A DNA stretch of 64,000 nucleotides from an uncultured Candidatus Saccharibacteria bacterium (GTDB lineage Bacteria; Patescibacteriota; Minisyncoccia; Phycocordibacterales; JAKAEA01), in contig CAZHGQ010000005.1 of assembly GCA_964532205.1 (NCBI GenBank), positions 1,520 to 65,519 on the forward strand. Direction: 5' to 3'. The position numbers were made by a program, and so were the translations under genes. Shown piece by piece: positions 3,011-59,331 of this stretch. Under the pieces are notes generated by a model. That model was not told the origin of the DNA. It saw only the letters and a program-made list of their open reading frames with translations, and did no database searches. How positions within the stretch are numbered: the first letter of the stretch is position 1; each line of letters begins with the position of its first letter.

Positions 3011-3454
3011 ATGCAGATCAATAATCTCAAAAGAAAAACACCTAATCGCAAGCGCATGATTGTCGCTCGTTGTGGTAAGAGTGGCAAGACAGCGGGCCGT
3101 GGTACGAAGGGTCAGAAGGCGCGTGCTGGTCACAAAATCCGTCCTGAACTTCGCGATATCATTAAGCGAATTCCAAAGATGCGTGGCCGTGGTAAAAATA
3201 GCAACGTATCATTTTACGAAAAGCCAGTTGTACTCAATCTCGATGCTATCGAATTACTCTTTGCTAATGGTGAGACAGTTTCTCGAACAACCCTTATTGA
3301 AAAAGGTCTTGTTTCAATGCGTAATGGTAAAGTGCCAGCCCTAAAGATTCTTGGGGATGGTACACTTACCAAGAAGGTCACAATTAAAGGCCTCCCAGTC
3401 TCACAGTCTGCTAAAGCCAAGATTGAAAAGGCAGGAGGAGTAATCAATGAATAA
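3011..3454 (+). CDS. rplO: 50S ribosomal protein L15
   Basis: An ATG at 3011 gives MQINNLKRKTPNRKRMIVARCGKSGKTAGRGTKGQKARAGH, an L15-like start. It lies only ~10 nt after the S5 stop, so no L30 gene lies between them. Confidence 0.85.
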   Translation: MQINNLKRKTPNRKRMIVARCGKSGKTAGRGTKGQKARAGHKIRPELRDIIKRIPKMRGRGKNSNVSFYEKPVVLNLDAIELLFANGETVSRTTLIEKGLVSMRNGKVPALKILGDGTLTKKVTIKGLPVSQSAKAKIEKAGGVINE

Positions 3455-4718
3455 ATTTTCAGAAAAACTTCGACTCATCCTTGCGGATCGGACTCTCGTT
3501 AAGCGAATTTTTATAACCATAGTTTTGCTCGTTGTCTTCCGACTTCTAGCAGCTATTCCTATTCCTGGTATTGATGCAATTCGCCTCAATCAGCTTTTTA
3601 GTGGCAACCAGTTCCTAGGCTTGCTCAACGTTTTCTCTGGTGGCGGTCTTTCAAACCTGTCGATCGTGATGCTCGGTGTTGGTCCATACATCACGTCAAC
3701 AATTATCATGCAGTTGTTGACGTTACTCTCACCACGTCTCAAGGCTATGTATCAGGAAGAAGGTCAGCTTGGCCGACGTAAGTTTGCTCAATACTCACGC
3801 ATGCTCTCTGTACCTCTGGCTATCTTGCAAGCTTTCGGTTTTCTTATTTTGTTCCAGAAGCAGGGTATTCTCGATCCACTTGGTTCATTTGAACTCATTC
3901 GAAATATTTTGATCGTGACTGCCGGTTCAATCTTCTTGATGTGGCTCGGTGAACGCATCAGCGAATTCGGTATTGGTAATGGCCTCTCGCTTATCATCTT
4001 CGGTGGTATCGTAGCTTCATTCCCACTTTCTGTTGGTCGCCAGATTTATTCATACGATCCATCACAGTTGCCAATGTATTTAGCAATCATTGCCGGTGCT
4101 ATTGTTGTTATCTATGCTGTGGTAGTTATCACTGAAGCTGAACGACCAATTCCCGTAACGTACGCCAAGCAGGTGAGGGGTAATAAAGTCTACGGTGGTG
4201 TTTCAACATATTTGCCATTACGACTCAACCAGGCCGGTGTGATCCCAATTATCTTTGCATTGTCTTTGATGCTTTTCCCTCAAGTTATCTTCGGTTTCTT
4301 GGCCCAGGTTAAGAATGCCACACTAGCCGCATGGGCTCTTAAGGGCGAGCAATTGCTGCAAAATCAGTGGGTCTACAATATTGCTTACTTCTTACTGGTA
4401 TTCGTCTTCACATACTTCTACACAGCGGTAACATTTGATCCAAACAGCATTTCAGAAAATTTGCAGAAGAATGGCGCTTTCATTCCAGGTGTGCGCCCAG
4501 GTCAGTCGACAGCCGCTCACATCTCACGAATTCTGACGCGCCTCACTGCGTTCGGCGCCCTCTTCCTGGCTATCATTGCTATCTTGCCGCTGGTTGTCCG
4601 AGCCACAACTGGTTTCACTTCGGTGGCGATCGGTGGTACTGCATTGCTCATCGTCGTCTCAGTGGTTATCGATTTGATCCGACGTACTGACGCTCAGATC
4701 TCGATGCGGGAGTATTAA
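3447..4718 (+). CDS. secY: preprotein translocase subunit SecY
   Basis: The 423-aa multi-TM protein is in the canonical position after L15 and overlaps the L15 stop by 8 nt (ATGAATAA). Confidence 0.95.
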   Translation: MNKFSEKLRLILADRTLVKRIFITIVLLVVFRLLAAIPIPGIDAIRLNQLFSGNQFLGLLNVFSGGGLSNLSIVMLGVGPYITSTIIMQLLTLLSPRLKAMYQEEGQLGRRKFAQYSRMLSVPLAILQAFGFLILFQKQGILDPLGSFELIRNILIVTAGSIFLMWLGERISEFGIGNGLSLIIFGGIVASFPLSVGRQIYSYDPSQLPMYLAIIAGAIVVIYAVVVITEAERPIPVTYAKQVRGNKVYGGVSTYLPLRLNQAGVIPIIFALSLMLFPQVIFGFLAQVKNATLAAWALKGEQLLQNQWVYNIAYFLLVFVFTYFYTAVTFDPNSISENLQKNGAFIPGVRPGQSTAAHISRILTRLTAFGALFLAIIAILPLVVRATTGFTSVAIGGTALLIVVSVVIDLIRRTDAQISMREY

Positions 4719-4776: not shown

Positions 4777-5172
4777 CTAGAAATAATCTTGAACTGCATC
4801 GGTAAATTTTTTTGCTAGATTTTTTCCTTTGCTAGTGAGGGTAATAATGTGGGACCGAGCATCCTGCTTGCACATGGTACGAATAGCAAATCCCTTTTGG
4901 ATGAGTCGTCTGATATGTGTGCTCGCAGTATTGTGTGGAATCTCCAAGGTGTTGCACATCAACTTGACCCGGCACGAACCATCAAGATGGAAAACCAGCA
5001 ACAATATGACTGCCTCACGAAGTGATAGGCTGTGTTTTGTCGAAAGTAGCATAACGTCGGCCATTGTGCAGTAGAGAAGTTTTGCTTGCAACTGAGGATC
5101 CATAGCGTCTCCCAAAGAACGAGTCGTTAAATAAAACTTTGCAAACATTACCACGTATTTAGAAACATACAA
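4777..5172 (-). CDS. MarR-family winged-helix transcriptional regulator (putative)
   Basis: 131 aa; the central segment ...TASTHIRRLIQKGFAIRTMCKQDARSHIITLTSKGKNLAKKF resembles the MarR recognition helix plus wing. Confidence 0.55.
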   Translation of the reverse strand: MYVSKYVVMFAKFYLTTRSLGDAMDPQLQAKLLYCTMADVMLLSTKHSLSLREAVILLLVFHLDGSCRVKLMCNTLEIPHNTASTHIRRLIQKGFAIRTMCKQDARSHIITLTSKGKNLAKKFTDAVQDYF

Positions 5173-5531: not shown

Positions 5532-5628
5532 AAGTTCCTTTCGTTTAGTCTGCTAGTATTATAGCATATATATAGCCTATGTGTCAAGGACTATAATAGG
5601 GCCTAAAAATAGGGTATTATGGCCATAT

Positions 5629-6219
5629 ATGAAACCTCAAACATTCATCTTTTTCGGTCGTTCAGGCTGTGGCAAAGGCACTCAAGCCCAGCTTATAATG
5701 GACCGTCTGCACAAGGCAGATCCTAGTCATAAAGTCATTTATATCGAGTCAGGTGCCAAATTACGTGAGTTTGCGGATGAGGTCGGCCTCTCAGCAGAAT
5801 TGACTCGCGATACCATGGCTAAAGGCGGTTTATTGCCTTCATTTATTCCAATCTGGATTTGGGCTAATACCTTCGTGCGTCACATGACGGGCGCTGAGCA
5901 CGTGGTCATGGATGGTCTGTCACGCCGTATTTATGAAGCGCCAGTTTTGGATGATGCGCTCAAGTTTTATAAGCGCGAGCAGCCGATTGTGATTTCTATG
6001 GAAGTTAGCCGCGACTGGTCGCGCAATCGGCTGCTCGCGCGTGGCCGAGCCGACGACAATAAGCAAGACATTGAAGAGCGCCTAAACTGGTACGATGAAA
6101 ATGTTTTGCCAACAATTGAATACTTTAAAACAAATCCGTACTACAAATTTATCAGCGTAAATGGCGAACAGTCTATAGAACAGGTTGCTGAAGAAATTAA
6201 AGCCAAAACCGGAATTTAA
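5629..6219 (+). CDS. adk: adenylate kinase-like nucleoside monophosphate kinase
   Basis: A start at MKPQTFIFFGRSGCGKGTQAQLI gives the P-loop GxxGxGKGTQ. It sits between secY and map as in the conserved spc/alpha region. Confidence 0.8.
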   Translation: MKPQTFIFFGRSGCGKGTQAQLIMDRLHKADPSHKVIYIESGAKLREFADEVGLSAELTRDTMAKGGLLPSFIPIWIWANTFVRHMTGAEHVVMDGLSRRIYEAPVLDDALKFYKREQPIVISMEVSRDWSRNRLLARGRADDNKQDIEERLNWYDENVLPTIEYFKTNPYYKFISVNGEQSIEQVAEEIKAKTGI

Positions 6220-6983
6220 TGGTTACGATTAAGACAAAAGAAGAAATTGAAATATTGCGTGAGGGCGGGAAGCGCCTGGCGCGGATTTTGGCCGCCGTCG
6301 CGGCTGAGGCTAAGGCGGGTGTATCTGCTGATGTCCTCGATAAGTTAGCTGAAAAACTCATCCGCGATGGCGGTGACACCCCAGCCTTTCTCGGTCACAA
6401 AGGCAAAACAGAAAAAGTGGGCTACCCAGCTTCATTGTGTGTATCAGTCAATGATGAAGTTGTGCATGGTTTGCCGCTTAAATCAAAAGTTTTTAAAGAT
6501 GGTGACGTAGTTGGTCTTGATCTCGGTCTTATTCACAAAGGCCTTTACACCGATCATGCTGTGACTGTTGCTATTGGCGATATTTCACCTGAGGTCAAGA
6601 CATTACTGGAAATGACCAAGAAAGCACTTAATGTTGGCATTAAAGCTGCAAAGCCCGGCAAGAAAACAGGTGATGTCGGCTGGGCGATAGAGCAAGCAGT
6701 GCGCGGTCATAACTACGGCATCATTGAAGAATTGTCTGGCCACGGCGTAGGTTATGCTGTGCACGAAGATCCGTTTGTGCCAAACTTTGGCGTCAAAAAT
6801 GAAGGTGTAGAGCTCAAGCCAGGTATGGTCATAGCCATTGAGCCAATGTTTACACTTGGCTCTGCGGATATTGAAATCGGCAAAGATGGTTATGCGTATC
6901 GTACCGTTGATGGTTCAATCGGTGCGCATTTTGAACATACGATTGTGATTACGGAAAAAGGTTCTGAAATTTTGACACAATAG
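6219..6983 (+). CDS. map: type I methionine aminopeptidase
   Basis: 254-aa protein with the MetAP-I metal ligands (D..D...H..E..E context: VGLDLG..., HGVGYAVHEDP, IAIEPMF). Confidence 0.95.
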   Translation: MVTIKTKEEIEILREGGKRLARILAAVAAEAKAGVSADVLDKLAEKLIRDGGDTPAFLGHKGKTEKVGYPASLCVSVNDEVVHGLPLKSKVFKDGDVVGLDLGLIHKGLYTDHAVTVAIGDISPEVKTLLEMTKKALNVGIKAAKPGKKTGDVGWAIEQAVRGHNYGIIEELSGHGVGYAVHEDPFVPNFGVKNEGVELKPGMVIAIEPMFTLGSADIEIGKDGYAYRTVDGSIGAHFEHTIVITEKGSEILTQ

Positions 6984-7026
6984 TAGGATCAAGATATATC
7001 AAAGCTGATATTGTTATAAAGAGAAA

Positions 7027-7061
7027 CCGGCAAGGTAGGCGACCTACCTTGCCGGTTTTTT
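7027..7061 (+). terminator. rho-independent terminator after map
   Basis: A 13-bp stem CCGGCAAGGTAGG/CCTACCTTGCCGG is followed by T6. Confidence 0.8.
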
Positions 7062-7179
7062 GCTACTATATCCAATCTGATATAAAGTTCGATGTTTGCC
7101 AGAACAGTCTCATACTTAGAGTATTTTCTATTGGCAATTTCATTTCGACTACCGCTCTTTAAAGCAATAAATTATAAAT

Positions 7180-7284
7180 ATATCGATTTGGATATAATGA
7201 CCAAAATCAGAAAAGTCGTGTGTCCGGACTTTATTTGAAAACACCTTTTTATATCAACAAAGATACCTATATCAAATTTGATAT
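7180..7284. promoter_or_regulatory. two ATATC-N6-GATAT palindromic operator-like sites upstream of the 7370 gene
   Basis: ATATCGATTTGGATAT at 7180-7195 and ATATCAAATTTGATAT at 7269-7284 (within the 20-bp perfect palindrome 7267-7286). A half-site ATATCAACAAAGATAC lies at 7251-7266. A -10 box TATAAT at 7356-7361 sits 8 nt before the ATG, so the mRNA may be leaderless. Confidence 0.55.
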
Positions 7285-7369
7285 AGTCAGCGCTCTGGAC
7301 AGGCTTACTAATTGTTTAATACAAATTATCCCTACGAACAGACATAGTACTGTTGTATAATGGCTCTAT

Positions 7370-10135
7370 ATGGAGCACGTGGCTTCGCATGCTGAACATT
7401 CTTTTACCAACCCTGATGAGGAGTTGGCCTATTTACGTGAACAGGTTGCTGTCCGGGAGCGCGAATTAGCCGCTCGTGGTGCGGAGGTTGTGAAGGATCA
7501 TGTCGTCTCTGACACGATTAAGGATTATAGTTATCGGCCAACAGGCAAAACACTTGATGCTGGCTTTGCTGAAAAGAAAACCGTTCTGGCTGAATTGGCT
7601 TTGAACTTGGCACCTGAGGCCCACGACACAAAAATTTCTGAACTAGCAGCAATGCTCACGGAAAAGGGTTTTAAAAATACCTTGGCAGTAGTGGAGGCCA
7701 TGAAAGATCCACATGTAGCCGATGACTTCCATCGTTTTTTGGTGCAGTTTGTGAAGAAGGGTCATGAAGTGCCGGGTCTGCCAATGAAGTCGGAAGTCTT
7801 TAGTGAACTTTCCATGACGCTGTATGAAGTTTCATTGCCGGCTGGTTCTGAGGCCGATAAACAAAAAGGTTTAAAGGAATTGGTTTCGGCCATGGAGCAG
7901 TTTTATGCCGGTATGTTGTCTTTGGGATCAGATAAGAGCGGTCGTTACTTTAGCTTGGAGATTGCCAACCCAAATCATAGCTCAGAATTTATCATTTATG
8001 TTTCCGTACCTGATGAGAAAAAAGATTTGTTCGAGAAGCAAATTCTTTCACTCTTTAGTAATGCCAAGATCAAAGAAGTTCCCGATGACTACAATATTTT
8101 TCATGAGGGTGGCACAACTGTTGGGGCGGTAGCACACTTGAAGAAACATCCGATTTTTCCAGTTAAAACATATGAGCAATTTGATCACGATCCATTTAAT
8201 GTTTTGGTCAATACATTTTCTAAGATCAAAAAAGATGGTGAGGGTGCAGCCGTGCAAGTGGTCTTTAGACCAAGTCAGCATGATTATTTAGACGAGTACA
8301 AAGTTAGTCTCAAAAAGATAAAGGAAGGGGAGTCGGTCGGTAAAGCCTTGCCAAAAACATTGACCAAAGAAATTCTTTCAAGCTTCGGTGAGTTTATTGT
8401 TGGCGTTAAAAAGAAAAAAGACGAAGAGAAAGACAAACCAAAGGTTATTGATGAAGCGGTCGTTAAGAATATTGAACATAAGATTTCGTCTCAGATTGCT
8501 GAGGTCAATATCCGTATTTTGGCTTCGGCGCCGGATGCTGGCGATGCTAACCGTATTCTCGACGACATTGCCTCAAGCTTCCATCAATTTGAAAACACAT
8601 CTGGCAATGGCATTGAATTCAAGCGACTTTCGGGTAGCAAGCTGGCAGCACTTGATCACGATTTTTCATATCGAGCCTTTACTAAAAGTGATTTGCTACC
8701 ATTATCATTTAAAGAATTAACCACCATCTTCCATTTTCCTGGCGCGACGGTAACGTCGTCACCTCAGCTCAAGCAGGCCAAGGCGGGTTCAGCTGCAGCG
8801 CCGCTCGATCTACCACAAGAGGGCACACTGCTTGGCGTGAACCGATTCCGCAACATTGAGACTAAAGTCTTTATGACCAAAGAAGATCGCTTGCGCCACT
8901 TCTACACAATAGGTCAGACCGGTACAGGTAAATCGACGCTGCTCAAAAATATGATCGCTCAGGACATCCTGCAGGGTGAGGGTGTATGCATGATCGATCC
9001 GCACGGCGTCGATATCTTGGATATTTTGGCTATGATCCCGAAAGAGCGTTACGAAGATGTGATTTACTTTGATCCGAGTTATACTGCCCGACCAATGGGT
9101 CTTAATATGCTCGAATATGATGCTCGCTATCCGGAGCAGAAGACATTCGTGGTTAACGAAATGCTCTCAATTTTCAATAAGTTGTTTGATATGAAGGTGG
9201 CTGGAGGGCCGATGTTTGAACAATATTTCCGAAATGCTGTGTTGCTGGCGATTGATGATCCGAATGATGGCGCGACATTGCTCGATATTTCCAAGATTTT
9301 GGCTAATAAGCCGTACCGCGAGCAGAAGTTGGCTAAATGTACCAATCCGATCGTGGTGCAGTTTTGGAAAGAAGTGGCCGACAAAGCCGGTGGTGAAGCG
9401 TCATTAGCCAACATCGTGCCGTACATCACCTCAAAGTTCGATGTCTTTTTGTCGAACGATATTATGCGACCAATTATTGCTCAGGAAAAATCCTCATTCA
9501 ATTTCCGCGAAGTCATGGATAATAAAAAGATTTTGCTGGTCAATTTGGCCAAGGGTCGTCTCGGAGATCTCAATGCCAACCTGATTGGTCTGATTTTGGT
9601 GGGTAAAATTTTGATGGCCGCGCTTTCGCGTGCTGACTCGATCGGCCAGGATTTACCACCGTTCTATTTGTATATTGATGAGTTCCAGAATGTCACTACA
9701 GATTCAATTGCCACAATTCTTTCCGAAGCACGTAAGTATAAATTGTCACTCAATGTGGCTCACCAATTTATCGCTCAGCTTGAAGAAAAGATTCGCGATG
9801 CGGTGTTTGGAAACGTAGGTTCATTGGCAGTCTTTAGGGTAGGGGCCGATGATGCTGAATACTTGGAAAAACAATTTTCACCTGTCTTTACTGCCAATGA
9901 CATAATTAATATTGAAAATCGTAATGCCTATGTGAAGATGCTCGTGCATGGGCGGCCGGCGGTGCCATTTAATATTGAGACATTGCCACCGCCGGCCGGC
10001 AAGAAAGAACACCTCGAGAAACTCAAAGAACTTTCATATTTAAAATTTGGTAAAGCGCGTTCACAGATTGAGTCGGTGATACATTCTAAATACAAAAAAG
10101 AGCCGCCAGTTGCTCCATTGACAAATACTAAATAA
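7370..10135 (+). CDS. 921-aa soluble P-loop NTPase; the C-terminal half is an FtsK/HerA / type-IV-coupling-protein (TraG/TraD/VirD4, AAA_10-like) ATPase; the N-terminal ~450 aa are unassigned
   Basis: Walker A is TIGQTGTGKSTLL and Walker B is FYLYIDEFQN. The downstream R-K-x5-L-x3-AHQ-x3-QL motif (RKYKLSLNVAHQFIAQL) is typical of conjugative VirD4/VirB4-type ATPases. No N-terminal TM helices are present. Confidence 0.6.
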   Translation: MEHVASHAEHSFTNPDEELAYLREQVAVRERELAARGAEVVKDHVVSDTIKDYSYRPTGKTLDAGFAEKKTVLAELALNLAPEAHDTKISELAAMLTEKGFKNTLAVVEAMKDPHVADDFHRFLVQFVKKGHEVPGLPMKSEVFSELSMTLYEVSLPAGSEADKQKGLKELVSAMEQFYAGMLSLGSDKSGRYFSLEIANPNHSSEFIIYVSVPDEKKDLFEKQILSLFSNAKIKEVPDDYNIFHEGGTTVGAVAHLKKHPIFPVKTYEQFDHDPFNVLVNTFSKIKKDGEGAAVQVVFRPSQHDYLDEYKVSLKKIKEGESVGKALPKTLTKEILSSFGEFIVGVKKKKDEEKDKPKVIDEAVVKNIEHKISSQIAEVNIRILASAPDAGDANRILDDIASSFHQFENTSGNGIEFKRLSGSKLAALDHDFSYRAFTKSDLLPLSFKELTTIFHFPGATVTSSPQLKQAKAGSAAAPLDLPQEGTLLGVNRFRNIETKVFMTKEDRLRHFYTIGQTGTGKSTLLKNMIAQDILQGEGVCMIDPHGVDILDILAMIPKERYEDVIYFDPSYTARPMGLNMLEYDARYPEQKTFVVNEMLSIFNKLFDMKVAGGPMFEQYFRNAVLLAIDDPNDGATLLDISKILANKPYREQKLAKCTNPIVVQFWKEVADKAGGEASLANIVPYITSKFDVFLSNDIMRPIIAQEKSSFNFREVMDNKKILLVNLAKGRLGDLNANLIGLILVGKILMAALSRADSIGQDLPPFYLYIDEFQNVTTDSIATILSEARKYKLSLNVAHQFIAQLEEKIRDAVFGNVGSLAVFRVGADDAEYLEKQFSPVFTANDIINIENRNAYVKMLVHGRPAVPFNIETLPPPAGKKEHLEKLKELSYLKFGKARSQIESVIHSKYKKEPPVAPLTNTK

Positions 10136-10174: not shown

Positions 10175-10942
10175 GTGAAAAATCTGCTTGTTTGCTTGAT
10201 TTGTACCCTGCTTTGCAGCCAGGTATTGGCCGAGCAGAATGGAAACTTCCTGCTGGACTGCACGAAAACAAAGTCGGTCAGCGTTTCCACGGTGTACCGA
10301 TCCCAATATGTGCTTTCAAGTGGGGTTGTTTGCAAAGATGAAGGCGTCGTGCAAGCCGACCTCTTTGTTCAAATGAAGTCTGGTTTGACACTTGATTTGT
10401 GGGCTTCAGCGCCCATCGATGTCTCAGACTTCAACAAGGACTTCGGCACTGAACTCGACGGCACTGTTGGGTATACCAACAAGTTCGGCGACTATTGCAC
10501 CAGCTTTGGTCTGTCATTTTATGATATGAAAAAGGTTGGTACATTGTCCGGATCGGATTTGTTCTGCGCATACCTGGAAGTCTCCCGGGATTTCCTGGTA
10601 CGGCCGGATATCACCATCACGCCTTATCTGCGGTTGGAACTTGATTTCACCACAGATGGCACAGTCGGCAGCGATTTGTTGCCACAACTCGGTTCACGAG
10701 TGGCGTGGCACGCAAATGATCGTTTGACTGTGGTTGGCAAAGGCTATCTTCTCTATGATCCAGGTATGTTCGGTGCTGACACCGCGCTTATCGGGGGTGT
10801 TGAGGGGAAGCTGTGCTGGAAGCTCGCTGAACACGTATCGCTCGAGCTACCGTATCTGCGGGTTGTCGCGCCCTTGACTGATGTCTCAGACAATCGGGAT
10901 ACCGAGTTTGTCTGGGGCATAGGACTAACGTTTAGTTTCTAG
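10175..10942 (+). CDS. secreted beta-rich protein with an outer-membrane-protein-like C-terminus (ends ...VWGIGLTFSF)
   Basis: GTG start with RBS AAAGGAG and a signal peptide MKNLLVCLICTLLCSQVLA. The C-terminal aromatic Phe matches the beta-barrel OMP signature. The gene looks noticeably GC-richer than its flanks. Confidence 0.45.
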   Translation: MKNLLVCLICTLLCSQVLAEQNGNFLLDCTKTKSVSVSTVYRSQYVLSSGVVCKDEGVVQADLFVQMKSGLTLDLWASAPIDVSDFNKDFGTELDGTVGYTNKFGDYCTSFGLSFYDMKKVGTLSGSDLFCAYLEVSRDFLVRPDITITPYLRLELDFTTDGTVGSDLLPQLGSRVAWHANDRLTVVGKGYLLYDPGMFGADTALIGGVEGKLCWKLAEHVSLELPYLRVVAPLTDVSDNRDTEFVWGIGLTFSF

Positions 10943-11023
10943 ATCTTTTTACGAAGAGCGAATCGCTGTGCGATTCGCTCTTTTTTGTTTGCCAAAAATT
11001 TCTTGAAGGAGTACAGTGTGCTC

Positions 11024-11632
11024 ATGAAAACTCATGCAAAGACGGAACGTACACTCGTTATTATTAAACCCGACGGCATTCAGCGCTCGCTGATTGGCGA
11101 AATTATTAAGCGGTACGAACGGGCCGGTCTTAAATTGGCAGCCATGAAAATGGTGGTGCCAACCGGCGCTCAAGTGGTCAAACACTACACACTCGACCCA
11201 CAATGGCGTCGGGTAACAGGTGAGAAGACCATTAAAGGTTATTTGGATAAAGGTTTGACTCCACCAGTCAAAGATCCGCTTGAAGTTACGCGCATTTTAT
11301 TGGAAAAACTTCAAAGATATATGACTTCCGGTCCGGTCTTGGTCATGATTTGGCAGGGTGCCCATGCAGTTAAGATTGTTCGGAAGCTCACAGGTGGTAC
11401 GGAGCCGCTGATGAGCGATGTTGGTACGATCCGCGGCGACTACGTGCTCGATTCATATGAAATGTCAGATAGCGACGGTCGCTCAATTCGAAATTTGGTC
11501 CATGCTTCTGGCTCGGTCAAGGAAGCTGAGCAGGAAATCAAACACTGGTTCAAAAAAGGTGAAATTTACAACTACAGACTTGTTCAAGAACAGATTTTGT
11601 ACGATGTAAATATAGACGGCATTTTTGAGTAA
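11024..11632 (+). CDS. ndk: nucleoside diphosphate kinase with a C-terminal extension
   Basis: MKTHAKTERTLVIIKPDGIQRSLIGEIIKRYERAGLKLAAMKM and NLVHASGS are NDK motifs. At ~200 aa it is longer than the usual ~140 aa. Confidence 0.8.
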   Translation: MKTHAKTERTLVIIKPDGIQRSLIGEIIKRYERAGLKLAAMKMVVPTGAQVVKHYTLDPQWRRVTGEKTIKGYLDKGLTPPVKDPLEVTRILLEKLQRYMTSGPVLVMIWQGAHAVKIVRKLTGGTEPLMSDVGTIRGDYVLDSYEMSDSDGRSIRNLVHASGSVKEAEQEIKHWFKKGEIYNYRLVQEQILYDVNIDGIFE

Positions 11633-14753: not shown

Positions 14754-16460
14754 TTATGAGCCGAATTTAATAGGCAGTTTATTGAGGACTTCAGGGCTAA
14801 GTAGAGCGGTCAGGAGCGTGGTGACAATGAGCCAAGCTGAAAGAAGGATAACAAAGCCAATGAGAACCATTTTGAACACATACTTGGCTCGAGTGGTTTT
14901 TGCAACATCACCAGCCGAGGTGAGATAGAGCCAGCCCGCGTAGGCAAATGATACTGCTGCTAGGGGAGCGGCGATAATGAAGAAGGCGTTGATAACATTT
15001 TTAACCAATCTAATGAAGGCATTGAAATCACAATCTGAAGCACCGTTACATGGAATTAGGCCACCGGCACCATGAGGGGTGATTGTTGGAGTTGGAGGTT
15101 GAGTGTAGCCACCCGATGAACCAGATGGCGTGCCTGTATACTGGTCGATAAAATCTTCTTTACACTGAGTGACATTTGTTGAGTCCTTACAATTTTCGGT
15201 TGCAATTACATCAACACAACTTGAAGGGTCGCTAGCATCAATACACATCATTAGAGGACCAGTATATTCACCTTGATTGATATCTGTGCGGTCGGTGCCC
15301 GTCGCATTGCTGTTGTCATCGCCGATGCCGCCACCTGTATAATCACCAATATCAATATCGCCGCCGCTACCACCGTCGTCGGTTGGATTGCCACCTCCAC
15401 CAGAATTACCACCAGTACCACCAGTCGAACCACCAGAATTACCACCATCGCCGCTGACACCACCACCCGCACCACCAGTAATTTTTTTGTATGTTGAATA
15501 GAAGGGTTCGTTAGCACTTGAGCCATCAGCTGTTCGTAAACCTGCTGGGCCGGCCATTGAATCTGGTCGGTATTTGCTTGGGTAATACCAAATACCCTGG
15601 ACGTAATTTTTTATACCATTATAGGCAATCGGCAATTGAGCCGCCCACTTTGCTTTATCGAAACTAAAATCGGTTTTATCTTTTCGATAGTGAACATTCC
15701 ACTCAGTCAGGAACATTGGTTTTGTGGAGCCAATGTTAGCGCGAGCTTGCTTGATGCGACTAATTTGTTGTTCGGCTGAATTTTCACCTGAGCCACCATA
15801 CGGGTGGAAACCGATAATATCAGCATATGAAGTTAGACCAGGTGTTTTCAAAGCATTGGCATCCCAAGAAACAGAACCACTAATAGTGATTTCACCAAGG
15901 GGGTGGAGGGCATCCCAGGCACCTTTTTGTAGAATATCAACATACTGTTTCATGGAGCCGCTCCAGTATGTACAGAGATTCGGTTCGTTGCCGATTTCCC
16001 AATAGTCAACTGCGCCATTTGCAGCTGCCGCAGCCTTTTTGAAATAATTATAGACTTGGTTGTAATTTGGGATTGGTACGGATTTTACACAACTACCATT
16101 AACTTTTTTGTTTTCAGTTGGTGTGAATACGACAACTGTTTTAATGCCTTCTGCCTGGAGTTTGCGCATATTACTGAATTCCGAAGAGGAAGGGGGATTA
16201 TCCCAATCACGAACCTCTTTCCAAATACGAGCACTGGTTAGGTTGAGACCTTTCAAAAACGAAGTGCTTATTGTTTCACTGGCCGTGACACCAAAAATGA
16301 AACCACCGGGTACCAAGGCAGACGCGGCAGTCTGGTTTATTGATTGCGATTTGGCGGTTTGTTGAAGATTTGAATTATTAAAATATAAAAAAAGTGTTGA
16401 GGCGAAGGTGATAACAACGAGAAAACCACCTAATGCATTCGCCAGAGAATGTTTATTCAT
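14754..16460 (-). CDS. secreted clan GH-A (GH5-like) glycoside hydrolase with a Gly-rich linker, a Cys-rich module and a C-terminal two-helix membrane anchor
   Basis: N-terminal TM/signal. It has the YWEIGNEPN (acid/base NEP) and FLTEWN (nucleophile TE) motifs. The linker reads GGAGGGVSGDGGNSGGSTGGTGGNSGGGG. The C-terminus AAPLAAVSFAYAGWLYL...MVLIGFVILLSAWLIV is a helix-loop-helix hydrophobic pair. Confidence 0.55.
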   Translation of the reverse strand: MNKHSLANALGGFLVVITFASTLFLYFNNSNLQQTAKSQSINQTAASALVPGGFIFGVTASETISTSFLKGLNLTSARIWKEVRDWDNPPSSSEFSNMRKLQAEGIKTVVVFTPTENKKVNGSCVKSVPIPNYNQVYNYFKKAAAAANGAVDYWEIGNEPNLCTYWSGSMKQYVDILQKGAWDALHPLGEITISGSVSWDANALKTPGLTSYADIIGFHPYGGSGENSAEQQISRIKQARANIGSTKPMFLTEWNVHYRKDKTDFSFDKAKWAAQLPIAYNGIKNYVQGIWYYPSKYRPDSMAGPAGLRTADGSSANEPFYSTYKKITGGAGGGVSGDGGNSGGSTGGTGGNSGGGGNPTDDGGSGGDIDIGDYTGGGIGDDNSNATGTDRTDINQGEYTGPLMMCIDASDPSSCVDVIATENCKDSTNVTQCKEDFIDQYTGTPSGSSGGYTQPPTPTITPHGAGGLIPCNGASDCDFNAFIRLVKNVINAFFIIAAPLAAVSFAYAGWLYLTSAGDVAKTTRAKYVFKMVLIGFVILLSAWLIVTTLLTALLSPEVLNKLPIKFGS

Positions 16461-17909: not shown

Positions 17910-20831
17910 ATGAGACAAAAATTAATTATTGGCCTCAGTATCGCAGTTGTGCTTTTTGTTGGTTTTATTACGACGTACACATTCAGTCTAAAGTTAAAAG
18001 AGGGCGCAGTGCCGTCATCGTCACTCACGGCGAGTGTTGCTGAAGCTCTACAACTTCAACTCAATGTTGGTTGGAGTCGTTTTTCACCACAAGGCGGTCA
18101 GAATGTGATCTATGTCTCAAGTTCACAAGGTAATGACAATAACGACGGTCTCTCTCAGTTAACCCCTGTCAAAACTCTGGCCAAAGGCCAGTCACTGATT
18201 CGCTCAAATCACAGTGACTGGATGGTCTTGCGGCGTGGCGATGTTTGGGATGAAAGTTTTGGCACGTGGACTCGCAGTGGTACGTCAGCCGATAACCCAG
18301 TCGTAATTTCAAGTTATGGCACAGGTCCACGTCCGCTGGTGAATGTTCGCAACGGTCAAAGCGCTTTGGCACTTAGAAATGCCGGCGTCAACAATTTTGC
18401 CATGATCGGTATTCACATTCGTTCTTATCAGGAAAAGAATAAAAAACAAGAGAAGGGTATTAGTTTGCCTGGTAATTACCAAAATATTTACCTTGATGAC
18501 ATGTTCATCGAAGGCTTTACTGGTAATGTTGTGACAGAAACCTGCGAGACGTGTGTGCGAAAAAATCTAGTCATCACTCACTCAATTATTGCCAATGCCT
18601 ATAACCCAGAGGGTAATGCCAGTGGTATTTTTATCACCTCAACAGATGGCATCAAAGTTGAAGACAGTATCTTCTATCATAATGGTTGGAATAACGGTAA
18701 TGTAAGTTATGATCCTACAGCGCGTAGAACTGCCGCAACAGAATTTAATCAAGGTCTCTATCTTTCACACAACAATACAGCCAATACAATCGTTCGTAAT
18801 AATGTTATTGCTGATACTGCCAATGGCGGTGTTTGGTTGCGTCGTGGTGGTTTGGCTGAAAACAACTTCTTTGTTCGCAATACTAACGCACTACTCGTGG
18901 CCATTGGTCCAAACACGGTGCGTAACAACGTTATTGTTGAGGGTGTAAATAATATTGATGGAAATAAGGTTGGTGGTATTGAAACTAAGCCAACAAATAC
19001 AGGTACAGTTTTTGAAAATAACTTGATTGTCAATTCTGCCAAAAACACCGGAAGTGGGTTTAAGGCCGTCGGGTCATTCGATTTCGGTTATGGTGAAGAC
19101 TATGCTAAATCATTGATTACTCGTTACAGTTTTACCTTTAAAAATAATACTATCTATAATGCTGGTGTTGGTCTAAATGTTGGTACTCGCTCTATTGCCG
19201 GTGGTGATATTTTGGGTAATATATTTATCGAAAAGCGAGATCAGGCGCCCGTACCGACTGGTTACGCACCGGTTGGTGCCTGTTCGGATCTTGGCGGCGG
19301 CGGTCTGCATTTAACCGTAGCTGGCAACACATTCTATTGTCCAAATTCAACAAACAAGTTCGTGATTACGAACGTACCGAAAACATTTAGCGAATATTCA
19401 ACTGCAGTCGGTGATACGACAAACCGTGAAGCGGATGTGACATTCGCTGATCCAAACCGCAGTATTAATAACTATGTTTCCGGTGGTTATGATGCATTCG
19501 TCCGAGGGTTACTGAATCAGTCGATAGATCGTTGGGATGAGAAATTCAGTGCCGCATCTCTTAATACATATTTCCGTGAAGCTTTTAAAACCAAATCAAA
19601 GACAGATAATCCGAAAGAGCCCGATGGTACAACTACACCACCGACTAAGCCTAGTTCAATTACCTTACTTACTCCAAACGGTGGTGAAACAATTTCAATT
19701 GGCGATACAGTGAATGTGACCTGGAAATCAACAGAACTTCCGGCTGACTCTACAGTTCGCATCTCACTCTATAAGGGTGTGGAATTGGTAAGTACTTTGG
19801 CCACGGTAACAAATAGCGGTAGTTATTCATGGCAAGTTGGCGAACGACCCGAGGGTTTTGATTACTCTATCCGCGTGACTTCGACTAAATCCGATATGCT
19901 GAAAGATAATAGCGACCGACCGTTCATGATAAATAAGTTGGCACCACCAGAAACAAAAATTACTGTTACATCACCAAACGGAAATGAAAACGTGACAGTT
20001 GGTAGTACTGTCAATATTACCTGGAGCTCACTGACATTTGATAAAGACGCTCATGTCCGAATTAGTTTGTACAAAGCTGGTGTACAAGTAAGTACTATTG
20101 TTGCTGACACATATAACTATGGTACATATACTTGGACTGTTGGGGATCGCGAAACAGCAAGTGATTACAAGATTCGAATCACTTCAATCTCAAAACCAAC
20201 TGTTTACGATGAGAGTGATTTAGTATTCACAATTACCAAACCATTACCGCCAAGTATTACAGTACAATCACCGAATGGTGGGGAAGCCTGGTCAATTGGT
20301 GATGCTGTCCAAATTCGTTGGTCAACAGTAAGTCTGCCTTCAACTGCTACTGTCAGAATTAGTTTGTACAAAGCTGGTGTACAGGTTTCAACTCTAGTTG
20401 ATAGCTATGCCAATGTCGGTGTCTTCAATTGGAACATTGCTGATCGCCCAACAGGCAGTGATTACACAGTACGTGTGACGTCGACATCTGACACAACTAT
20501 CAAGGATGAAAGTAATGCAACATTTACCATCAATCCCGCACCTCAGCCGTCGATCACTGTCACATCACCAAATGGTGGCGAAACAATTAAGATTGGCTCA
20601 ACCGTACCTATTAGCTGGACATCAACTCGAGTTTCAAACAATGTCCGTATTAGTTTGTACAAAAATGGTACATATGTAAAAACCATTGCTTCCGATGTGG
20701 CAAACAATGGTTCATACTCATGGACTGTTGGTAGTGAAACTGCAACGTCAGGTTATGCAATTCGCGTGACATCAAGTGCTGATGATCAGCTTCGTGATAT
20801 GAGTAATGGTACGTTTACCATTACGAAGTAG
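17910..20831 (+). CDS. large secreted right-handed beta-helix (pectate-lyase-fold-like) protein with 4 C-terminal ~100-aa tandem Kre9/KNH-like repeats
   Basis: N-terminal TM/signal. Repetitive NN(V/F)I...N turns (NNVIADTANGGVWLRRGG, NNFFVRNTNAL, NNVIVEGVNN) suggest a beta-helix. Four repeats carry I-T-(V/L)-x-S/T-PNGGE...W...VRISLYK...Y-W-VG...YxIRVTS. Confidence 0.55.
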   Translation: MRQKLIIGLSIAVVLFVGFITTYTFSLKLKEGAVPSSSLTASVAEALQLQLNVGWSRFSPQGGQNVIYVSSSQGNDNNDGLSQLTPVKTLAKGQSLIRSNHSDWMVLRRGDVWDESFGTWTRSGTSADNPVVISSYGTGPRPLVNVRNGQSALALRNAGVNNFAMIGIHIRSYQEKNKKQEKGISLPGNYQNIYLDDMFIEGFTGNVVTETCETCVRKNLVITHSIIANAYNPEGNASGIFITSTDGIKVEDSIFYHNGWNNGNVSYDPTARRTAATEFNQGLYLSHNNTANTIVRNNVIADTANGGVWLRRGGLAENNFFVRNTNALLVAIGPNTVRNNVIVEGVNNIDGNKVGGIETKPTNTGTVFENNLIVNSAKNTGSGFKAVGSFDFGYGEDYAKSLITRYSFTFKNNTIYNAGVGLNVGTRSIAGGDILGNIFIEKRDQAPVPTGYAPVGACSDLGGGGLHLTVAGNTFYCPNSTNKFVITNVPKTFSEYSTAVGDTTNREADVTFADPNRSINNYVSGGYDAFVRGLLNQSIDRWDEKFSAASLNTYFREAFKTKSKTDNPKEPDGTTTPPTKPSSITLLTPNGGETISIGDTVNVTWKSTELPADSTVRISLYKGVELVSTLATVTNSGSYSWQVGERPEGFDYSIRVTSTKSDMLKDNSDRPFMINKLAPPETKITVTSPNGNENVTVGSTVNITWSSLTFDKDAHVRISLYKAGVQVSTIVADTYNYGTYTWTVGDRETASDYKIRITSISKPTVYDESDLVFTITKPLPPSITVQSPNGGEAWSIGDAVQIRWSTVSLPSTATVRISLYKAGVQVSTLVDSYANVGVFNWNIADRPTGSDYTVRVTSTSDTTIKDESNATFTINPAPQPSITVTSPNGGETIKIGSTVPISWTSTRVSNNVRISLYKNGTYVKTIASDVANNGSYSWTVGSETATSGYAIRVTSSADDQLRDMSNGTFTITK
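19659..20828 (+). repeat. four tandem ~297-300-bp coding repeats
   Basis: Repeat units start at 19659, 19959, 20256 and 20553. The protein-level identity is clear; the units have diverged at the DNA level. Confidence 0.7.
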
Positions 20832-23134: not shown

Positions 23135-23140
23135 TTTTTG

Positions 23141-23527
23141 TGGAGATGGCGGGAATCGAACCCGCGTGCATGAGGTGTTCTTAGATATATCTACAGCGTC
23201 TAGTTTATCTCTTTGACCAAAGTCAATTTAAGTTAGTCGGATATGGGATAAACAAAATTTCCGAAAAACCGATTCTCATTTAGTTCGGCAGAAACAGAGA
23301 ACAGAAGCTGCCTAACCTGGCTTGATTACACCGGGACTAAACGCACCAGATTTGCGCTTAGGCGATGTCGCTTAGGCTAAAGCGTAAGCGAATTGAAAGT
23401 TCTTACTTGAAAAGTAAGGTGACTTTACAGAAGATTTTGCACTTCAGATTTCCGTCAGATTTAAGAGTTAACGGTGCTCTACGTTGCATAGATAAGATAC
23501 GGACTCATGTCTAGGCCGATCATCCCC
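23141..23527 (-). ncRNA. ssrA: tmRNA (transfer-messenger RNA)
   Basis: On the minus strand the 5' end is GGGGAUGAUCGGCC and the 3' end is GGUUCGAUUCCCGCCAUCUCCA, giving a tRNA-Ala-like acceptor/T-arm. An internal tag frame reads ...QFAYALA followed by UAA. It lies immediately downstream of smpB. Confidence 0.8.
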
Positions 23528-26518: not shown

Positions 26519-26562
26519 GATTGCTTAAAGGGCCTCATTGCAGTATAAATACGTATATCCAC

Positions 26563-26637
26563 GCGCCCGTAGCTCAGTTGGTAGAGCAGCCGTCTTATAC
26601 ACGGCCGGTCCATGGTTCGAGTCCATGCGGGCGCACA
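26563..26637 (+). tRNA. tRNA-Ile (anticodon UAU)
   Basis: Cloverleaf: acceptor GCGCCCG/CGGGCGC, D-arm TAGCTCAGTTGGTAGAGCA, anticodon stem GCCGT/ACGGC with loop CTTATAC (U33, TAT, A37), and T-arm CATGG TTCGAGT CCATG. Confidence 0.8.
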
Positions 26638-26685
26638 ATATTCCATCTGTTACCTCAAAAGACCCCGGGCCGTAGTATATATGTT

Positions 26686-31107: not shown

Positions 31108-31204
31108 TCTGTCATTTTTTCCACACGGTTTCGTCTATAGCGTATATGATATACTACTTGAGTAAAAATTATAAATTGTAGTATATCGATTAAATCAAAA
31201 TTCT

Positions 31205-31300
31205 ATGGAGGCAGAACAAAACACCCAAGCTTCAGTCAAACAACCATTTGTTTGTCCAACCGATCCGGCAGAATTAGCTCAGTGCGACAGCTGTCAGTAG
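31205..31300 (+). CDS. 31-aa Cys-containing micro-protein with its own promoter-like A/T box and terminator
   Basis: MEAEQNTQASVKQPFVCPTDPAELAQCDSCQ* is not in the ORF track. A strong terminator starts 5 nt after the stop. Confidence 0.4.
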   Translation: MEAEQNTQASVKQPFVCPTDPAELAQCDSCQ

Positions 31301-31304
31301 AAAA

Positions 31305-31328
31305 GGCCACCCCCACGGGTGGTTTTTT
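31305..31328 (+). terminator. rho-independent terminator
   Basis: GGCCACCC CCAC GGGTGG followed by T6. Confidence 0.8.
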
Positions 31329-31432
31329 GTTGCTCTTGAAAAGGATTAATATGTGTGGTATTCTCACCGCCAGATATTGGTTTTAACTGTTGTGCGACAG
31401 TGAGCCAATAAACTGTTTGCTACGGAGGTAGT

Positions 31433-31741
31433 ATGTCAGTACGGATATGGCTACGAATCGTCATGGTCGTTGCTTGCGCTGCCTTTATGATCCCTGCATT
31501 AGTTGCTTCGGCTGGCTCGGCGCCACCCTCGGGTCGATACTCATGTGGGGTCGATAATCCAAGCTCGACCCAGTGCGCGCGAATGACGTCGAATTCACCC
31601 CTCGACTGCACGTCGACCATTAACGTCAAAACCGGCGCGGTAACCTATGCCTGCACGGTGCGTCAGCCACCAAAGAAAAATGGTGGCACGATGGCTTTTG
31701 AGGTGATCCGGCGGACTGATTTTGTTTACTCCCAGCAGTAG
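31433..31741 (+). CDS. small secreted 6-Cys protein
   Basis: Signal peptide MSVRIWLRIVMVVACAAFMIPALVASA. The mature ~75 aa carry 6 Cys; a terminator follows. Confidence 0.5.
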   Translation: MSVRIWLRIVMVVACAAFMIPALVASAGSAPPSGRYSCGVDNPSSTQCARMTSNSPLDCTSTINVKTGAVTYACTVRQPPKKNGGTMAFEVIRRTDFVYSQQ

Positions 31742-37910: not shown

Positions 37911-37960
37911 GTGGAAAACTTATTGCGCGCTTTACAAAATGATGTGCTAAAATAAGGGGA

Positions 37961-38653
37961 ATGGAGAATAAGTTTCAAACGTCGTTCATTCCACAAAAGC
38001 CGCTCACTCAGACTTTCAGTCAACCGCCTCGTACCACCAACTTCTTTACGCTGGTTTCTACCATCATATTTATCACTATTTTAGCCTTATGTGGCGGTGT
38101 TTTCGGTTATCAGAAATATTTGCAAAATCAAAATGCTAATTTTGCTGAGCAGCTGCGCAAAATTACGGCCGAATTCCAACCTAGTTTCTTGTCAGAAATG
38201 ACGCGTTTAGATAATCGTTTGGTCTCAACCAAAACCTTACTCGCTAATCACTTGGCAGTTTCCAAATTCTTTGATTTCTTGAGCAAAAATACCTTGAAAA
38301 ATGTCCGTTTCTCAAGTTTTTCATATGTCTCTGACGGTACAAAGATTACAGTTTCAATGAAGGGGCAGGCTAATGGTTTTGCGGCGGTGGCTTTGCAATC
38401 TATGGCCTTCGGTACGGCCGATAATCTCAAGGTGTTACGTAACCCAACCATTGGTGATCTCAATCTCGATGCTTCAGGCAATGTTTCATTCGGTTTTGCT
38501 ACGTATATTCAGCCAAACTCAATGTTGTATCGCAGTGCGTTAGTCCCTGCACCTGTTGTTCCAGCTGCGACAATTGCTCCTGGTACAACAACAGCTTCAA
38601 CTACACCGTCACAAACAGCAAGTACAACATCGACAACAACCAAAAAACGCTAA
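37961..38653 (+). CDS. pilN: PilN-like bitopic pilus assembly protein
   Basis: A single TM after ~30 aa, a coiled/periplasmic domain, and a Thr/Ser-rich tail; position after pilM. Confidence 0.55.
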   Translation: MENKFQTSFIPQKPLTQTFSQPPRTTNFFTLVSTIIFITILALCGGVFGYQKYLQNQNANFAEQLRKITAEFQPSFLSEMTRLDNRLVSTKTLLANHLAVSKFFDFLSKNTLKNVRFSSFSYVSDGTKITVSMKGQANGFAAVALQSMAFGTADNLKVLRNPTIGDLNLDASGNVSFGFATYIQPNSMLYRSALVPAPVVPAATIAPGTTTASTTPSQTASTTSTTTKKR

Positions 38654-38654
38654 T

Positions 38655-39194: not shown

Positions 39195-39195
39195 T

Positions 39196-39546: not shown

Positions 39547-39552
39547 TTTTTC

Positions 39553-42773: not shown

Positions 42774-42774
42774 T

Positions 42775-58558: not shown

Positions 58559-58628
58559 GTAAAAGAAACCTCTAAGTAAAAATTTCAGAAATTGAGTGTT
58601 CACATAAAAAGCACGAAATCATCAAAAG

Positions 58629-58813
58629 ATATCAATTAAGATATTTTTGTATGCATTTAGCTTGATTTAAAGCCTTATTTTGAGGTTTTTGCTCAGCGGG
58701 GGTAGGCTGACAACTTTTCTTGATTTTGCCACTATATCTATTTTGATATTTGCCACTTGTTATTACCTATAAGAAATATATGCAAAAGGATATTTTTATA
58801 TCACTTTTGATAT
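58629..58813. promoter_or_regulatory. three ATATC-N6-GATAT palindromic sites upstream of the XRE regulator gene, two of them nested in a larger inverted repeat
   Basis: ATATCAATTAAGATAT at 58629-58644, ATATCTATTTTGATAT at 58734-58749, and ATATCACTTTTGATAT at 58798-58813. The outer arms GCCACTATATC (58728-58738) and GATATAGTGGC (58809-58819) are exact reverse complements. Confidence 0.55.
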
Positions 58814-58920
58814 AGTGGCGAAAAACTCAAAAGTAACATGAAAAAGGAAGAGCAAAAGTTATCAATTTTTCTTTACCTGCTTTTCATCAGAATTTTAACG
58901 CTGTGTCTTATACTTTGCCC

Positions 58921-59331
58921 ATGACACACTTTATCAAACAGAAAGATGTTTTTGGTGACCCACTTTCCGATAATGCAACCTTCTCTGAAGCCTGGCACAA
59001 AAAGAATAAGACGTATTATATTCCTGATCATAAGAGTGGTGGTCAAAAGGGCAATGAAGAGCGAAATCGCAAAGACAAGAAGCAAATTCTTCAATGGAAA
59101 TGCCGCCGCGCCGCGCGGCGGCACACTGCATTTCTGATTTTGCACACCCGGCTTGTCAAAAAGCTAACGCAAAAACAACTGGCCGACCTCGTTGGCACAC
59201 AGCAGGGCAATATTGCCAGAATAGAACGTGGGCGGGCGGTACCGTCGTTGGAATTTCTGCTAAAAATGGCGGCGGTGCTGGACACGAAGCTTCTACTGCC
59301 GACATTTGCATTTTTGCGGCCAAAGGCATAA
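58921..59331 (+). CDS. XRE-family (Cro/C1-type HTH) transcriptional regulator; possibly leaderless
   Basis: LTQKQLADLVGTQQGNIARIERGRAVPSLEFLLKMAAVL is an HTH_XRE. The ATG at 58921 lies 8 nt after the -10-like TATACT at 58908-58913. The track ORF starts at a GTG at 58903. Confidence 0.65.
   Translation: MTHFIKQKDVFGDPLSDNATFSEAWHKKNKTYYIPDHKSGGQKGNEERNRKDKKQILQWKCRRAARRHTAFLILHTRLVKKLTQKQLADLVGTQQGNIARIERGRAVPSLEFLLKMAAVLDTKLLLPTFAFLRPKA

Follow-up and report, generated by a model that had tools for sequence, protein, structure and literature searches.

What is a motor of the kind that serves conjugation doing behind the ribosomal genes of a bacterial chromosome? The question arises from a 64,000-nucleotide stretch of DNA of an uncultured Candidatus Saccharibacteria bacterium (contig CAZHGQ010000005.1), which we call the window. 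There, the genes secY (3447-4718), adk (5581-6219) and map (6219-6983) of the ribosomal spc string are followed by the gene of a large ATPase, and rpsM, rpsK, rpsD, rpoA and rplQ were not found among the window open reading frames (ORFs) scanned. The initial annotation, made from the sequence alone, described a soluble ATPase of 921 residues belonging to the conjugative branch of the FtsK/HerA superfamily, inserted at this place, and suggested that it might be a repressor-controlled defence factor. The reading frame is confirmed (7370..10135, plus strand, with an ATG start). Our interpretation differs. We propose, with moderate confidence, that the gene encodes a chromosomal, vertically inherited and domesticated motor, hexameric and similar to the type IV coupling proteins (T4CPs), which belongs to the DUF8128 family. 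Relatives of this family that live on mobile elements hold the position of the coupling protein in monoderm conjugation operons.

The C-terminal half of the protein is the easier one to place. Its Walker A box reads GQTGTGKST (residues 515-523) and its Walker B box YLYIDEFQN (residues 766-774), as the initial annotation had it, while the third motif, RKYKLSLNVAHQFIAQL at residues 788-804, is spaced RKx4Lx2AHQx3QL and not RKx5Lx3AHQx3QL. Three Pfam families are recognized above their cut-offs: TraG-D_C at 26.9 (cut-off 22), DUF87 at 25.2 (23.2) and T4SS-DNA_transf at 22.1 (20.1). The best NCBIfam matches are TraD and the CD1115 VirD4-like family, both below the equivalog cut-offs (47.4 bits against 366, and 41.5 against 250). 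The VirB4 models are far lower: family TIGR00929 gives 17.7 bits for a cut-off of 643, which leaves the motor outside the VirB4 motor family. Sequence searches of the PDB, whether by phmmer with the single sequence or with a profile of 60 sequences, retrieved TrwB and DotL only, over the Walker A region. An AlphaFold2 (AF2) model of the whole protein (mean pLDDT 77, pTM 0.59) matches TrwB in Foldseek with a TM-score normalized to the target (TMt) of 0.54-0.63, and places a helical block, residues 589-717, between Walker A and Walker B. VirB4 proteins likewise have a helical insertion between these two boxes. The TrwB_AAD_bind family scores 19.1, under its cut-off, in the 921-residue protein; it reaches 9.6e-11 in a short sister form to which we return below. 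Among plasmid proteins annotated as T4CPs, the motor is 27-35% identical to those of Bradyrhizobium, Sulfitobacter, Streptomyces, haloarchaea, Bacillus, Staphylococcus and Sulfolobus, and every annotated plasmid homologue bears a T4CP-type name. A hidden Markov model (HMM) of the C-terminal domain finds the DUF87 protein of a Bacillus subtilis plasmid at 2e-45 and leaves the VirB4-like ATPase of that same plasmid unmatched. Within the FtsK/HerA superfamily, these comparisons place the C-terminal half on the coupling-protein branch, an assignment of the initial annotation which the Pfam, NCBIfam and PDB matches bear out. The lack of a membrane anchor that it reported also holds: a hydrophobicity scan finds no hydrophobic 19-mer in the N-terminus, the sole hydrophobic stretch of the protein, residues 734-752, lying within the ATPase core.

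The N-terminal half is more enigmatic. Its 480 residues have no match in Pfam (in a copy without PF26449), NCBIfam or PADLOC, in agreement with the initial annotation, which had left this domain unassigned; homologues at 59-82% identity, by contrast, are annotated as carrying PF26449, that is, DUF8128. Modelled alone, residues 127-461 give a pLDDT of 84 and a pTM of 0.83. With this core as the Foldseek query against the PDB, every one of the first 14 matches is a TrwK/VirB4 chain (E 2e-7 to 5e-5, probability 1.0, TM-score normalized to the query, TMq, 0.40-0.45), and what comes after them is noise. The full-length model behaves likewise: TrwK/VirB4 of plasmid R388 is its best PDB match, over ~900 columns with an E-value of 2e-16, and outranks TrwB and HerA. 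In BFVD, the core finds gp156 of phage G at the top (E 5e-18) and phage JL, with E-values of ~1e-17 and TMq of 0.63-0.66, as well as an entry named 'component of type IV transporter system'. A disordered loop rich in lysine and glutamate (residues 330-357) sits inside the core, and the Pfam family CagE_TrbE_VirB does not match the ATPase. The initial annotation had suggested looking there for nuclease, SIR2 or TIR folds; no such partner is present, and the predicted fold is that of a type IV secretion system (T4SS) component, the N-terminal domain of VirB4. In VirB4 itself this domain binds VirB3, VirB8 and the membrane (PMC12857230). If sequence and model are taken together, the ATPase would be a protein of VirB4 architecture equipped with a coupling-protein motor of the VirD4 type.

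How could such a protein do without an anchor? A clue comes from the short sister form, ~800-850 residues long and ~39% identical, which is found in other Parcubacteria, Portnoybacteria for example. An N-terminal transmembrane (TM) helix is seen in 113 of 117 short forms and in none of 117 long ones, the first 60 residues of which contain no hydrophobic segment. All six short-form loci, two of which were reached by searching from the small protein itself, have directly upstream of the ATPase a gene of ~140-180 codons, the product of which has no Pfam match. Homology ties this small protein to residues ~27-130 of the long form: hhalign gives it a probability of 92% and an E-value of 5.8e-7, to be compared with 0.65 for a reversed control and 0.011 for the best of 20 column shuffles. 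Conversely, the HMM of the small protein, run over 1,223 ORFs, matches 40 long-form ATPases, always at residues ~25-135, and nothing else save the small protein of locus L005, itself a member of the HMM. The simplest reading of this pattern is a gene fusion, whereby the small partner would have taken over from the membrane anchor; the opposite event, fission of a long form, may have occurred instead. The soluble T4CP of pIP501, TraJ, is similarly thought to be anchored by a small protein, TraI (PMC12857230). We also considered an HD-type metal site, made of the residues E83/H85/D86...H115/D118/D119 that are invariant in the N-terminal module. It was rejected because there is no HD match in Pfam and because the free-standing small proteins do not keep these residues.

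The family extends well beyond Patescibacteria. A 24.7-kb plasmid of B. subtilis (NZ_CP032854) encodes an 886-residue soluble homologue, WP_121549396.1, as the first gene of an operon that continues with a replication-relaxation protein, a conjugal transfer protein, TcpE, a VirB4-like ATPase and a further conjugal transfer protein: this homologue sits where the coupling protein is expected in a conjugation operon. The HMM that we built for DUF8128 recognizes its residues 24-294 (2e-18; hhalign probability 97.6%), and it has no TM segment. Haloarchaeal plasmids have a split pair instead, in which the DUF8128 gene overlaps the start of the ATPase gene. Finally, phrog_5156 matches residues ~190-907 of the ATPase with an E-value of 4e-85; this phage family, encoded in early regions, has members in Bacillus phages G, CP-51, JL and Shanette and in Geobacillus phage TP-84. 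The same DUF8128 HMM joins the Patescibacteria, Bacillus plasmid, haloarchaeal and phage members, and the ATPase displays the succession that characterizes the PF26449/phrog_5156 family, DUF8128 and then a DUF87/TraG-D_C motor. This kinship with plasmids and phages parallels the origin of the Patescibacteria T4SS, which derives from monoderm conjugation machinery (PMC12102498). As a separate observation, the closest plasmid homologue of the motor (34.5%), a protein of 708 residues from Bradyrhizobium plasmid NZ_CP064708 (150073-152199), is without DUF8128 and has CHAT-domain and TPR proteins for neighbours, a setting reminiscent of conflict systems.

On the chromosome, the gene behaves as an ordinary resident. 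The search for homologues yielded more than 1,558, and the N-terminal domain used alone matched 986 clusters at the 50%-identity level; the best 120 homologues are 59-82% identical over the full length, and the named ones come from Patescibacteria (Parcubacteria/Paceibacteria). A scan with one genome per species found a relative of the ATPase in at least 595 Patescibacteria species genomes. The loci that we compared are the 80 best plus four from long contigs, the counts being stated over 83 loci. At least 54 of these 83, which come from different species, have the gene between map and ndk, a lower bound since several contigs are short; the gene directly follows map in 21 (with gaps down to -1 to 50 bp) and directly precedes ndk in 30. 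The position given in the initial annotation, after secY, adk and map, is correct, but the arrangement is lineage-wide and is no insertion. Copies found elsewhere are scattered among the syntenic ones in a distance tree, and they are therefore relocations; an old paralogue clade is ruled out by this interspersion. In the 27 loci where every marker is present, the ATPase has a median identity of 53.6% to its window counterpart, as compared with 54.9% for Map, 53.0% for the beta-CASP nuclease, 57.9% for L20, 60.0% for SecY, 37.7% for Adk and 38.8% for Ndk. The ATPase gene is, in short, part of the core of one Patescibacteria group and evolves slowly, at a pace like that of Map, L20 and the beta-CASP nuclease. 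Its GC content (0.42-0.45) is that of its flanks.

The block in which it resides comprises ribosomal-protein and nucleotide-kinase genes. A PyrH-like AA_kinase is found between adk and map in 19 loci and a cytidylate kinase in six; a beta-CASP nuclease (37 loci), a DUF2238 membrane protein (35) and a SLOG/LOG protein (21) are further members, and CYTH and HD proteins recur as well. Several neighbours in the window deserve a comment of their own. A MarR/SarA-type regulator on the opposite strand (4777-5172) splits the conserved operon between secY and adk, and has no homologue at that place in related loci. Between the ATPase and ndk lies a window-specific ORF of 255 codons (10175-10942, plus strand; GC 0.47, slightly above the flanks), without family match or homologue in related loci; its product has a signal peptide, is rich in beta structure and ends in ...GIGLTFSF, as outer-membrane beta-barrels do, in a lineage thought to be monoderm. 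The nucleoside diphosphate kinase NDK itself (10985-11632, plus strand, 215 residues) matches Pfam NDK in two pieces, residues ~21-70 and 106-194, and therefore has an insertion of ~35 residues with respect to ordinary NDKs of ~140 residues.

What would this motor do? We picture it as a hexameric ring on the cytoplasmic side of a membrane channel, where it would spend ATP on gripping and driving a macromolecule, most probably a nucleic acid. Docking, once the task of the lost TM helix, would fall to the DUF8128 domain and to the fused module derived from the former partner. One candidate for the channel is the T4SS that Patescibacteria encode at another place in the genome; some other partner may serve instead. 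A dedicated promoter might drive the gene, its transcription probably being modulated by an XRE protein that shares its palindromes, an arrangement confined to this genome. A 2025 survey reported 5,713 T4CP homologues in 2,918 Patescibacteria genomes, about two per genome and mostly far from virB4 and the T4SS locus, and left their role open (PMC12102498). The Patescibacteria members of DUF8128 are most likely already included among these 'T4CP homologues'. We noted, besides, a paralogue made of the ATPase only in a Nomurabacteria genome (L082_1, at 780-2270 of locus L082, plus strand): its 496 residues are 36% identical to the motor, without DUF8128 or TM segment, and its gene lies four genes 5' of the full-length one. 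The presence of such a paralogue in some genomes fits the figure of about two homologues per genome (PMC12102498).

Several facts weigh against this reading and explain why we hold it with restraint. The likeness of the N-core to the VirB4 N-terminal domain exists at the level of the predicted fold only (TMq 0.40-0.45), and the N-core and the motor, compared as profiles with a plasmid VirB4-like protein, gave a negative result (E 0.11). The arrangement of the domains is uncertain, because of the pTM of the full-length model. Neither in the window nor at the 83 related loci does a T4SS gene adjoin the ATPase, and no linkage to a relaxase or to T4SS genes, virB3, virB6 and virB8 included, is seen over the 64 kb or over these loci. 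The initial annotation had stated that relaxase and VirB partners were missing nearby; this is right as regards relaxase, VirB4 and VirB6, yet 4.6 kb from the ATPase (14754-16460, minus strand) there is a gene whose product has a VirB2-like T4SS_pilin domain at its C-terminus. This product is an unusual object, a T4SS pilin fused to a hydrolase: in 568 residues it combines a signal anchor, a GH5-like glycosidase region (WEIGNEPN), a glycine-rich linker and the pilin domain (PF18895, 4e-9, two hydrophobic helices), and it has no homologue in the 83 loci. T4CP homologues are reported in 2,918 Patescibacteria genomes and VirB4 in 2,417, and in S. epibionticum the t4cp homologue is dispensable for epibiotic growth, whereas T4SS genes are essential (PMC12102498); together, these two observations argue for an exapted role that is independent of the T4SS. 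The terms VirD4 and T4CP are absent from the main text of the Cell 2023 Tn-seq paper.

Motors of the FtsK/HerA/T4CP type are nucleic-acid pumps. Combined with the neighbourhood, this leads to the rival that survives best, to which we would still grant a clear minority of our belief: a T4SS-independent motor for nucleic-acid import or salvage, in which the ATPase would pump or process DNA or RNA derived from the host, for the enzymes encoded nearby to degrade and re-phosphorylate. The conserved block is rich in nucleotide enzymes (adk, the PyrH-like kinase, cytidylate kinase, ndk), beside the recurring CYTH, HD and SLOG/LOG proteins, beta-CASP nuclease and DUF2238 membrane protein, and the excess of T4CP homologues over VirB4 just quoted (PMC12102498) would be natural for a motor of this sort. 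Yet the spc operon, which is universal, already includes adk and map, and L20, L35 and IF3 serve plain housekeeping, so that the block may simply be a housekeeping supercluster; loci of the short form are without the nucleotide-enzyme context, and no channel protein has been identified. Furthermore, inactivation of comEC in S. epibionticum left viability unaffected, as summarized in PMC12857230, from which it would follow, as far as that summary goes, that DNA uptake is not essential for nucleotide supply in this organism. A more ambitious reading, which we offer as speculation and consider doubtful, would see in the DUF8128 ATPases an old and separate lineage of T4SS-related motors, intermediate between VirB4, whose two-domain architecture they would keep, and VirD4, whose kind of motor they would have; in Paceibacteria it would have been domesticated as a T4SS-independent nucleic-acid translocase with a housekeeping role in nucleotide salvage from the host, a fused adaptor standing in for the anchor.

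Could the protein rather be a soluble chromosome translocase like FtsK or SftA, involved in segregation or division? It is a soluble motor of the right superfamily, a core gene under strong purifying selection in a housekeeping context, and it matches FtsK_SpoIIIE (PF01580). This match, however, is weak (20.6 bits, for a cut-off of 24) and restricted to residues 489-534; the FtsK gamma domain is missing, T4CPs are the nearer relatives of the motor, and the sister forms, with their single TM helix and small partner gene, are unlike FtsK. We find this explanation rather improbable, more so than the import or salvage motor.

In the idea of a repressor-controlled anti-phage ATPase, the region upstream of the gene has a part. 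In this window, the map-ATPase spacer is 386 bp long and holds a terminator and palindromes specific to it; in many relatives the spacer is variable, with lineage-specific inserts. The palindromes, TATATC-N6-GATATA, exceed expectation: at one mismatch at most the window has 7 sites for 0.13 expected, with four at 6995-7285 and, before an HTH_3/XRE gene, two at 58733-58814, and at two mismatches at most it has 13 for 2.0 expected. The operator-like palindromes which the initial annotation saw as shared with an XRE regulator are therefore real, in both clusters. Those of the spacer lie 85-375 bp upstream of the ATG of the ATPase. A perfect TATAAT ends 8 nt before this ATG, without a -35 element that we could find nearby and without a visible Shine-Dalgarno sequence before the ATPase, and the messenger may be leaderless or nearly so; the spacer contains no convincing small ORF and no Rfam element. 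Control of the ATPase by the XRE protein through the shared palindromes is plausible on these sequence grounds, for this genome only. The motif is absent from all 93 loci of relatives fetched from elsewhere, and repressor control is therefore at most local to this genome; operator conservation cannot serve as evidence. Other genes may obey the same signal. The XRE gene is preceded by a very hydrophobic ORF of 28 codons, MKKEEQKLSIFLYLLFIRILTLCLILCP, which begins 24 bp downstream of a perfect palindrome and whose stop overlaps the XRE/HTH_3 start via ATGA. The two could form a toxin/antitoxin-like or a peptide/regulator pair. Near the third, weaker pair of palindromes, a 31-residue cysteine-containing ORF (31205-31300), followed by a terminator, and a 102-residue signal-peptide ORF (31433-31741) are found; the genes at 31136-31741 may belong to one regulon with the ATPase and the XRE gene.

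Apart from these palindromes and the XRE gene, a defence role could invoke the PADLOC match to mad8 (6e-13, residues 510-825), weak HerA matches (2e-4 at best, over ~40 residues), the existence of phage homologues and the Bradyrhizobium plasmid homologue with its CHAT/TPR neighbours. All the PADLOC matches are weak, partial and confined to the generic ATPase core, the Bradyrhizobium protein is without DUF8128, no effector partner is present and the palindromes are missing from all relatives. Above all, conservation is of the housekeeping kind and the position is fixed across species: a syntenic place in relatives, which the initial annotation itself had named as evidence against its proposal, is largely what map-ATPase-ndk in 54 of 83 loci amounts to. 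We regard a defence function as very improbable. As for the idea that a conjugative element or prophage integrated here recently and left the gene behind, suggested by the plasmid and phage relatives and by the variable map-ATPase spacer with its lineage-specific inserts, the chances are negligible, since the same position in 54 loci of different species effectively refutes it, and the tree is consistent with vertical descent, the GC content is that of the flanks and there is no integrase, relaxase or att-like repeat.

Features of the ATPase locus and of the palindrome clusters, in window coordinates
Feature	Coordinates	Strand	Basis or remark
Palindromes TATATC-N6-GATATA, 18 bp, n=5 (6995, 7067, 7179, 7250, 7268)	6995..7285	.	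motif scan
Intrinsic-terminator-like hairpin after map	7024..7064	+	sequence; strong hairpin (7024-7058) with 16-bp stem, then T-run
Perfect TATAAT, 8 nt before the ATPase ATG	7356..7361	+	candidate promoter, inferred
DUF8128 + T4CP-like ATPase gene	7370..10135	+	ATG start, 921 aa, soluble
N-terminal all-helical extension, residues 1-130	7370..7759	+	AF2 secondary structure; long soluble form only
DUF8128 core, residues ~140-461	7787..8752	+	PF26449 in homologues; alpha/beta, predicted fold like VirB4 N-terminal domain
T4CP-type P-loop motor, residues ~488-880	8831..10009	+	Pfam, NCBIfam, PDB, Foldseek
Walker A GQTGTGKS, residues 515-522	8912..8935	+	same in all 60 homologues
Walker B YLYIDE, residues 766-771	9665..9682	+	same in all 60 homologues
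RK..AHQ motif, residues 788-799	9731..9766	+	same in all 60 homologues
Third, weaker palindrome pair (31136, 31432)	31136..31449	.	flanks 31-aa Cys-containing ORF and start of 102-aa ORF
Second palindrome cluster (58628, 58733, 58777, 58797)	58628..58814	.	upstream of XRE operon
Candidate regulator operon, 28-aa ORF + XRE/HTH_3	58838..59331	+	ORFs 58838-58924 and 58921-59331

The remainder of the window offers some observations that are independent of the ATPase. A complete type IV pilus cluster (36801-48227) encodes PilM, PilB-like and PilT-like ATPases, PilC, a prepilin peptidase and at least five N_methyl pilins, with a VWA-PKD protein next to it (48217-49572). A tmRNA gene is present at 23138-23527 on the minus strand (94.9 bits), and a tRNA-Ile whose anticodon, TAT (UAU), is seldom met in bacteria, at 26563-26636 on the plus strand; the latter overlaps the 5' end of a called ORF (26521-28116), the real start of which is therefore further downstream. 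A 973-residue protein (17910-20831, plus strand) ends with four Kre9/KNH-like Ig repeats.

Why should this matter? Patescibacteria account for much of bacterial diversity and rely on host cells, and the literature that we searched describes no function, structure or architecture for the DUF8128 family. We did not find described elsewhere the VirB4-like fold of this domain, the small partner fused in place of an anchor, the fixed position in a housekeeping and nucleotide-kinase block, or the kinship with phage proteins and with a gene of a Bacillus conjugation operon. One of the T4CP homologues of these organisms could now be described part by part: a docking domain like that of VirB4, a motor like that of VirD4 and, fused to them, a former partner that would replace the anchor. 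This bears on the relation of the two T4SS ATPases, VirB4 and VirD4. Relatives that are tractable, in the B. subtilis plasmid operon and in Bacillus phages, make hypotheses about an exapted function testable.

Set against known systems, the ATPase differs from the defence ATPases of the HerA type, which join a HAS-barrel N-domain to an effector, whereas its own N-domain is alpha/beta and VirB4-like and no effector gene adjoins it. With T4CPs proper (VirD4, TraD, TraG, and TrwB of R388) it shares the FtsK/HerA P-loop motor; the helical block that its model shows between the Walker boxes may correspond to the all-alpha domain inserted in theirs. These proteins, however, have an N-terminal TM domain where the ATPase has a VirB4-like domain of ~330 residues and a helical module of ~130, and they are linked to a relaxase or a T4SS, unlike this unlinked chromosomal core gene, which reaches 47 bits of the 366 asked for in NCBIfam. 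VirB4 (TrwK of R388) has, going by the predicted fold, a like succession of an N-terminal alpha/beta domain and a C-terminal motor, without TM segments; yet no match is seen at the sequence level, and the ATPase has no VirB3, VirB6 or VirB8 neighbours. The canonical virB4 of Patescibacteria lies near dnaA and dnaN (PMC12102498). The pair TraJ/TraI of pIP501 resembles our case in concept, as a T4CP without TM domain that relies on a small partner (PMC12857230): TraI is a membrane protein, whereas the partner module of the ATPase is soluble and fused. The phrog_5156 proteins (gp156 of phage G, gp91 of CP-51, TP-84) share the DUF8128 core and the motor (N-core TMq 0.60-0.66), at 20-24% identity, but belong to phage early regions and are without the N-terminal module. 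WP_121549396.1 of the Bacillus plasmid has the same DUF8128/DUF87 architecture and is also soluble, with ~27% identity in the motor; it differs in adjoining relaxase-type and T4SS genes and in being without the helical module. The short DUF8128 ATPases of other Parcubacteria (P0232, P0281-P0399) come from the same phylum and have the same core and motor at ~39% identity: there, in another genomic context, a single TM helix stands where the long form has its helical module, and the module itself is a separate gene of ~150 codons just upstream.

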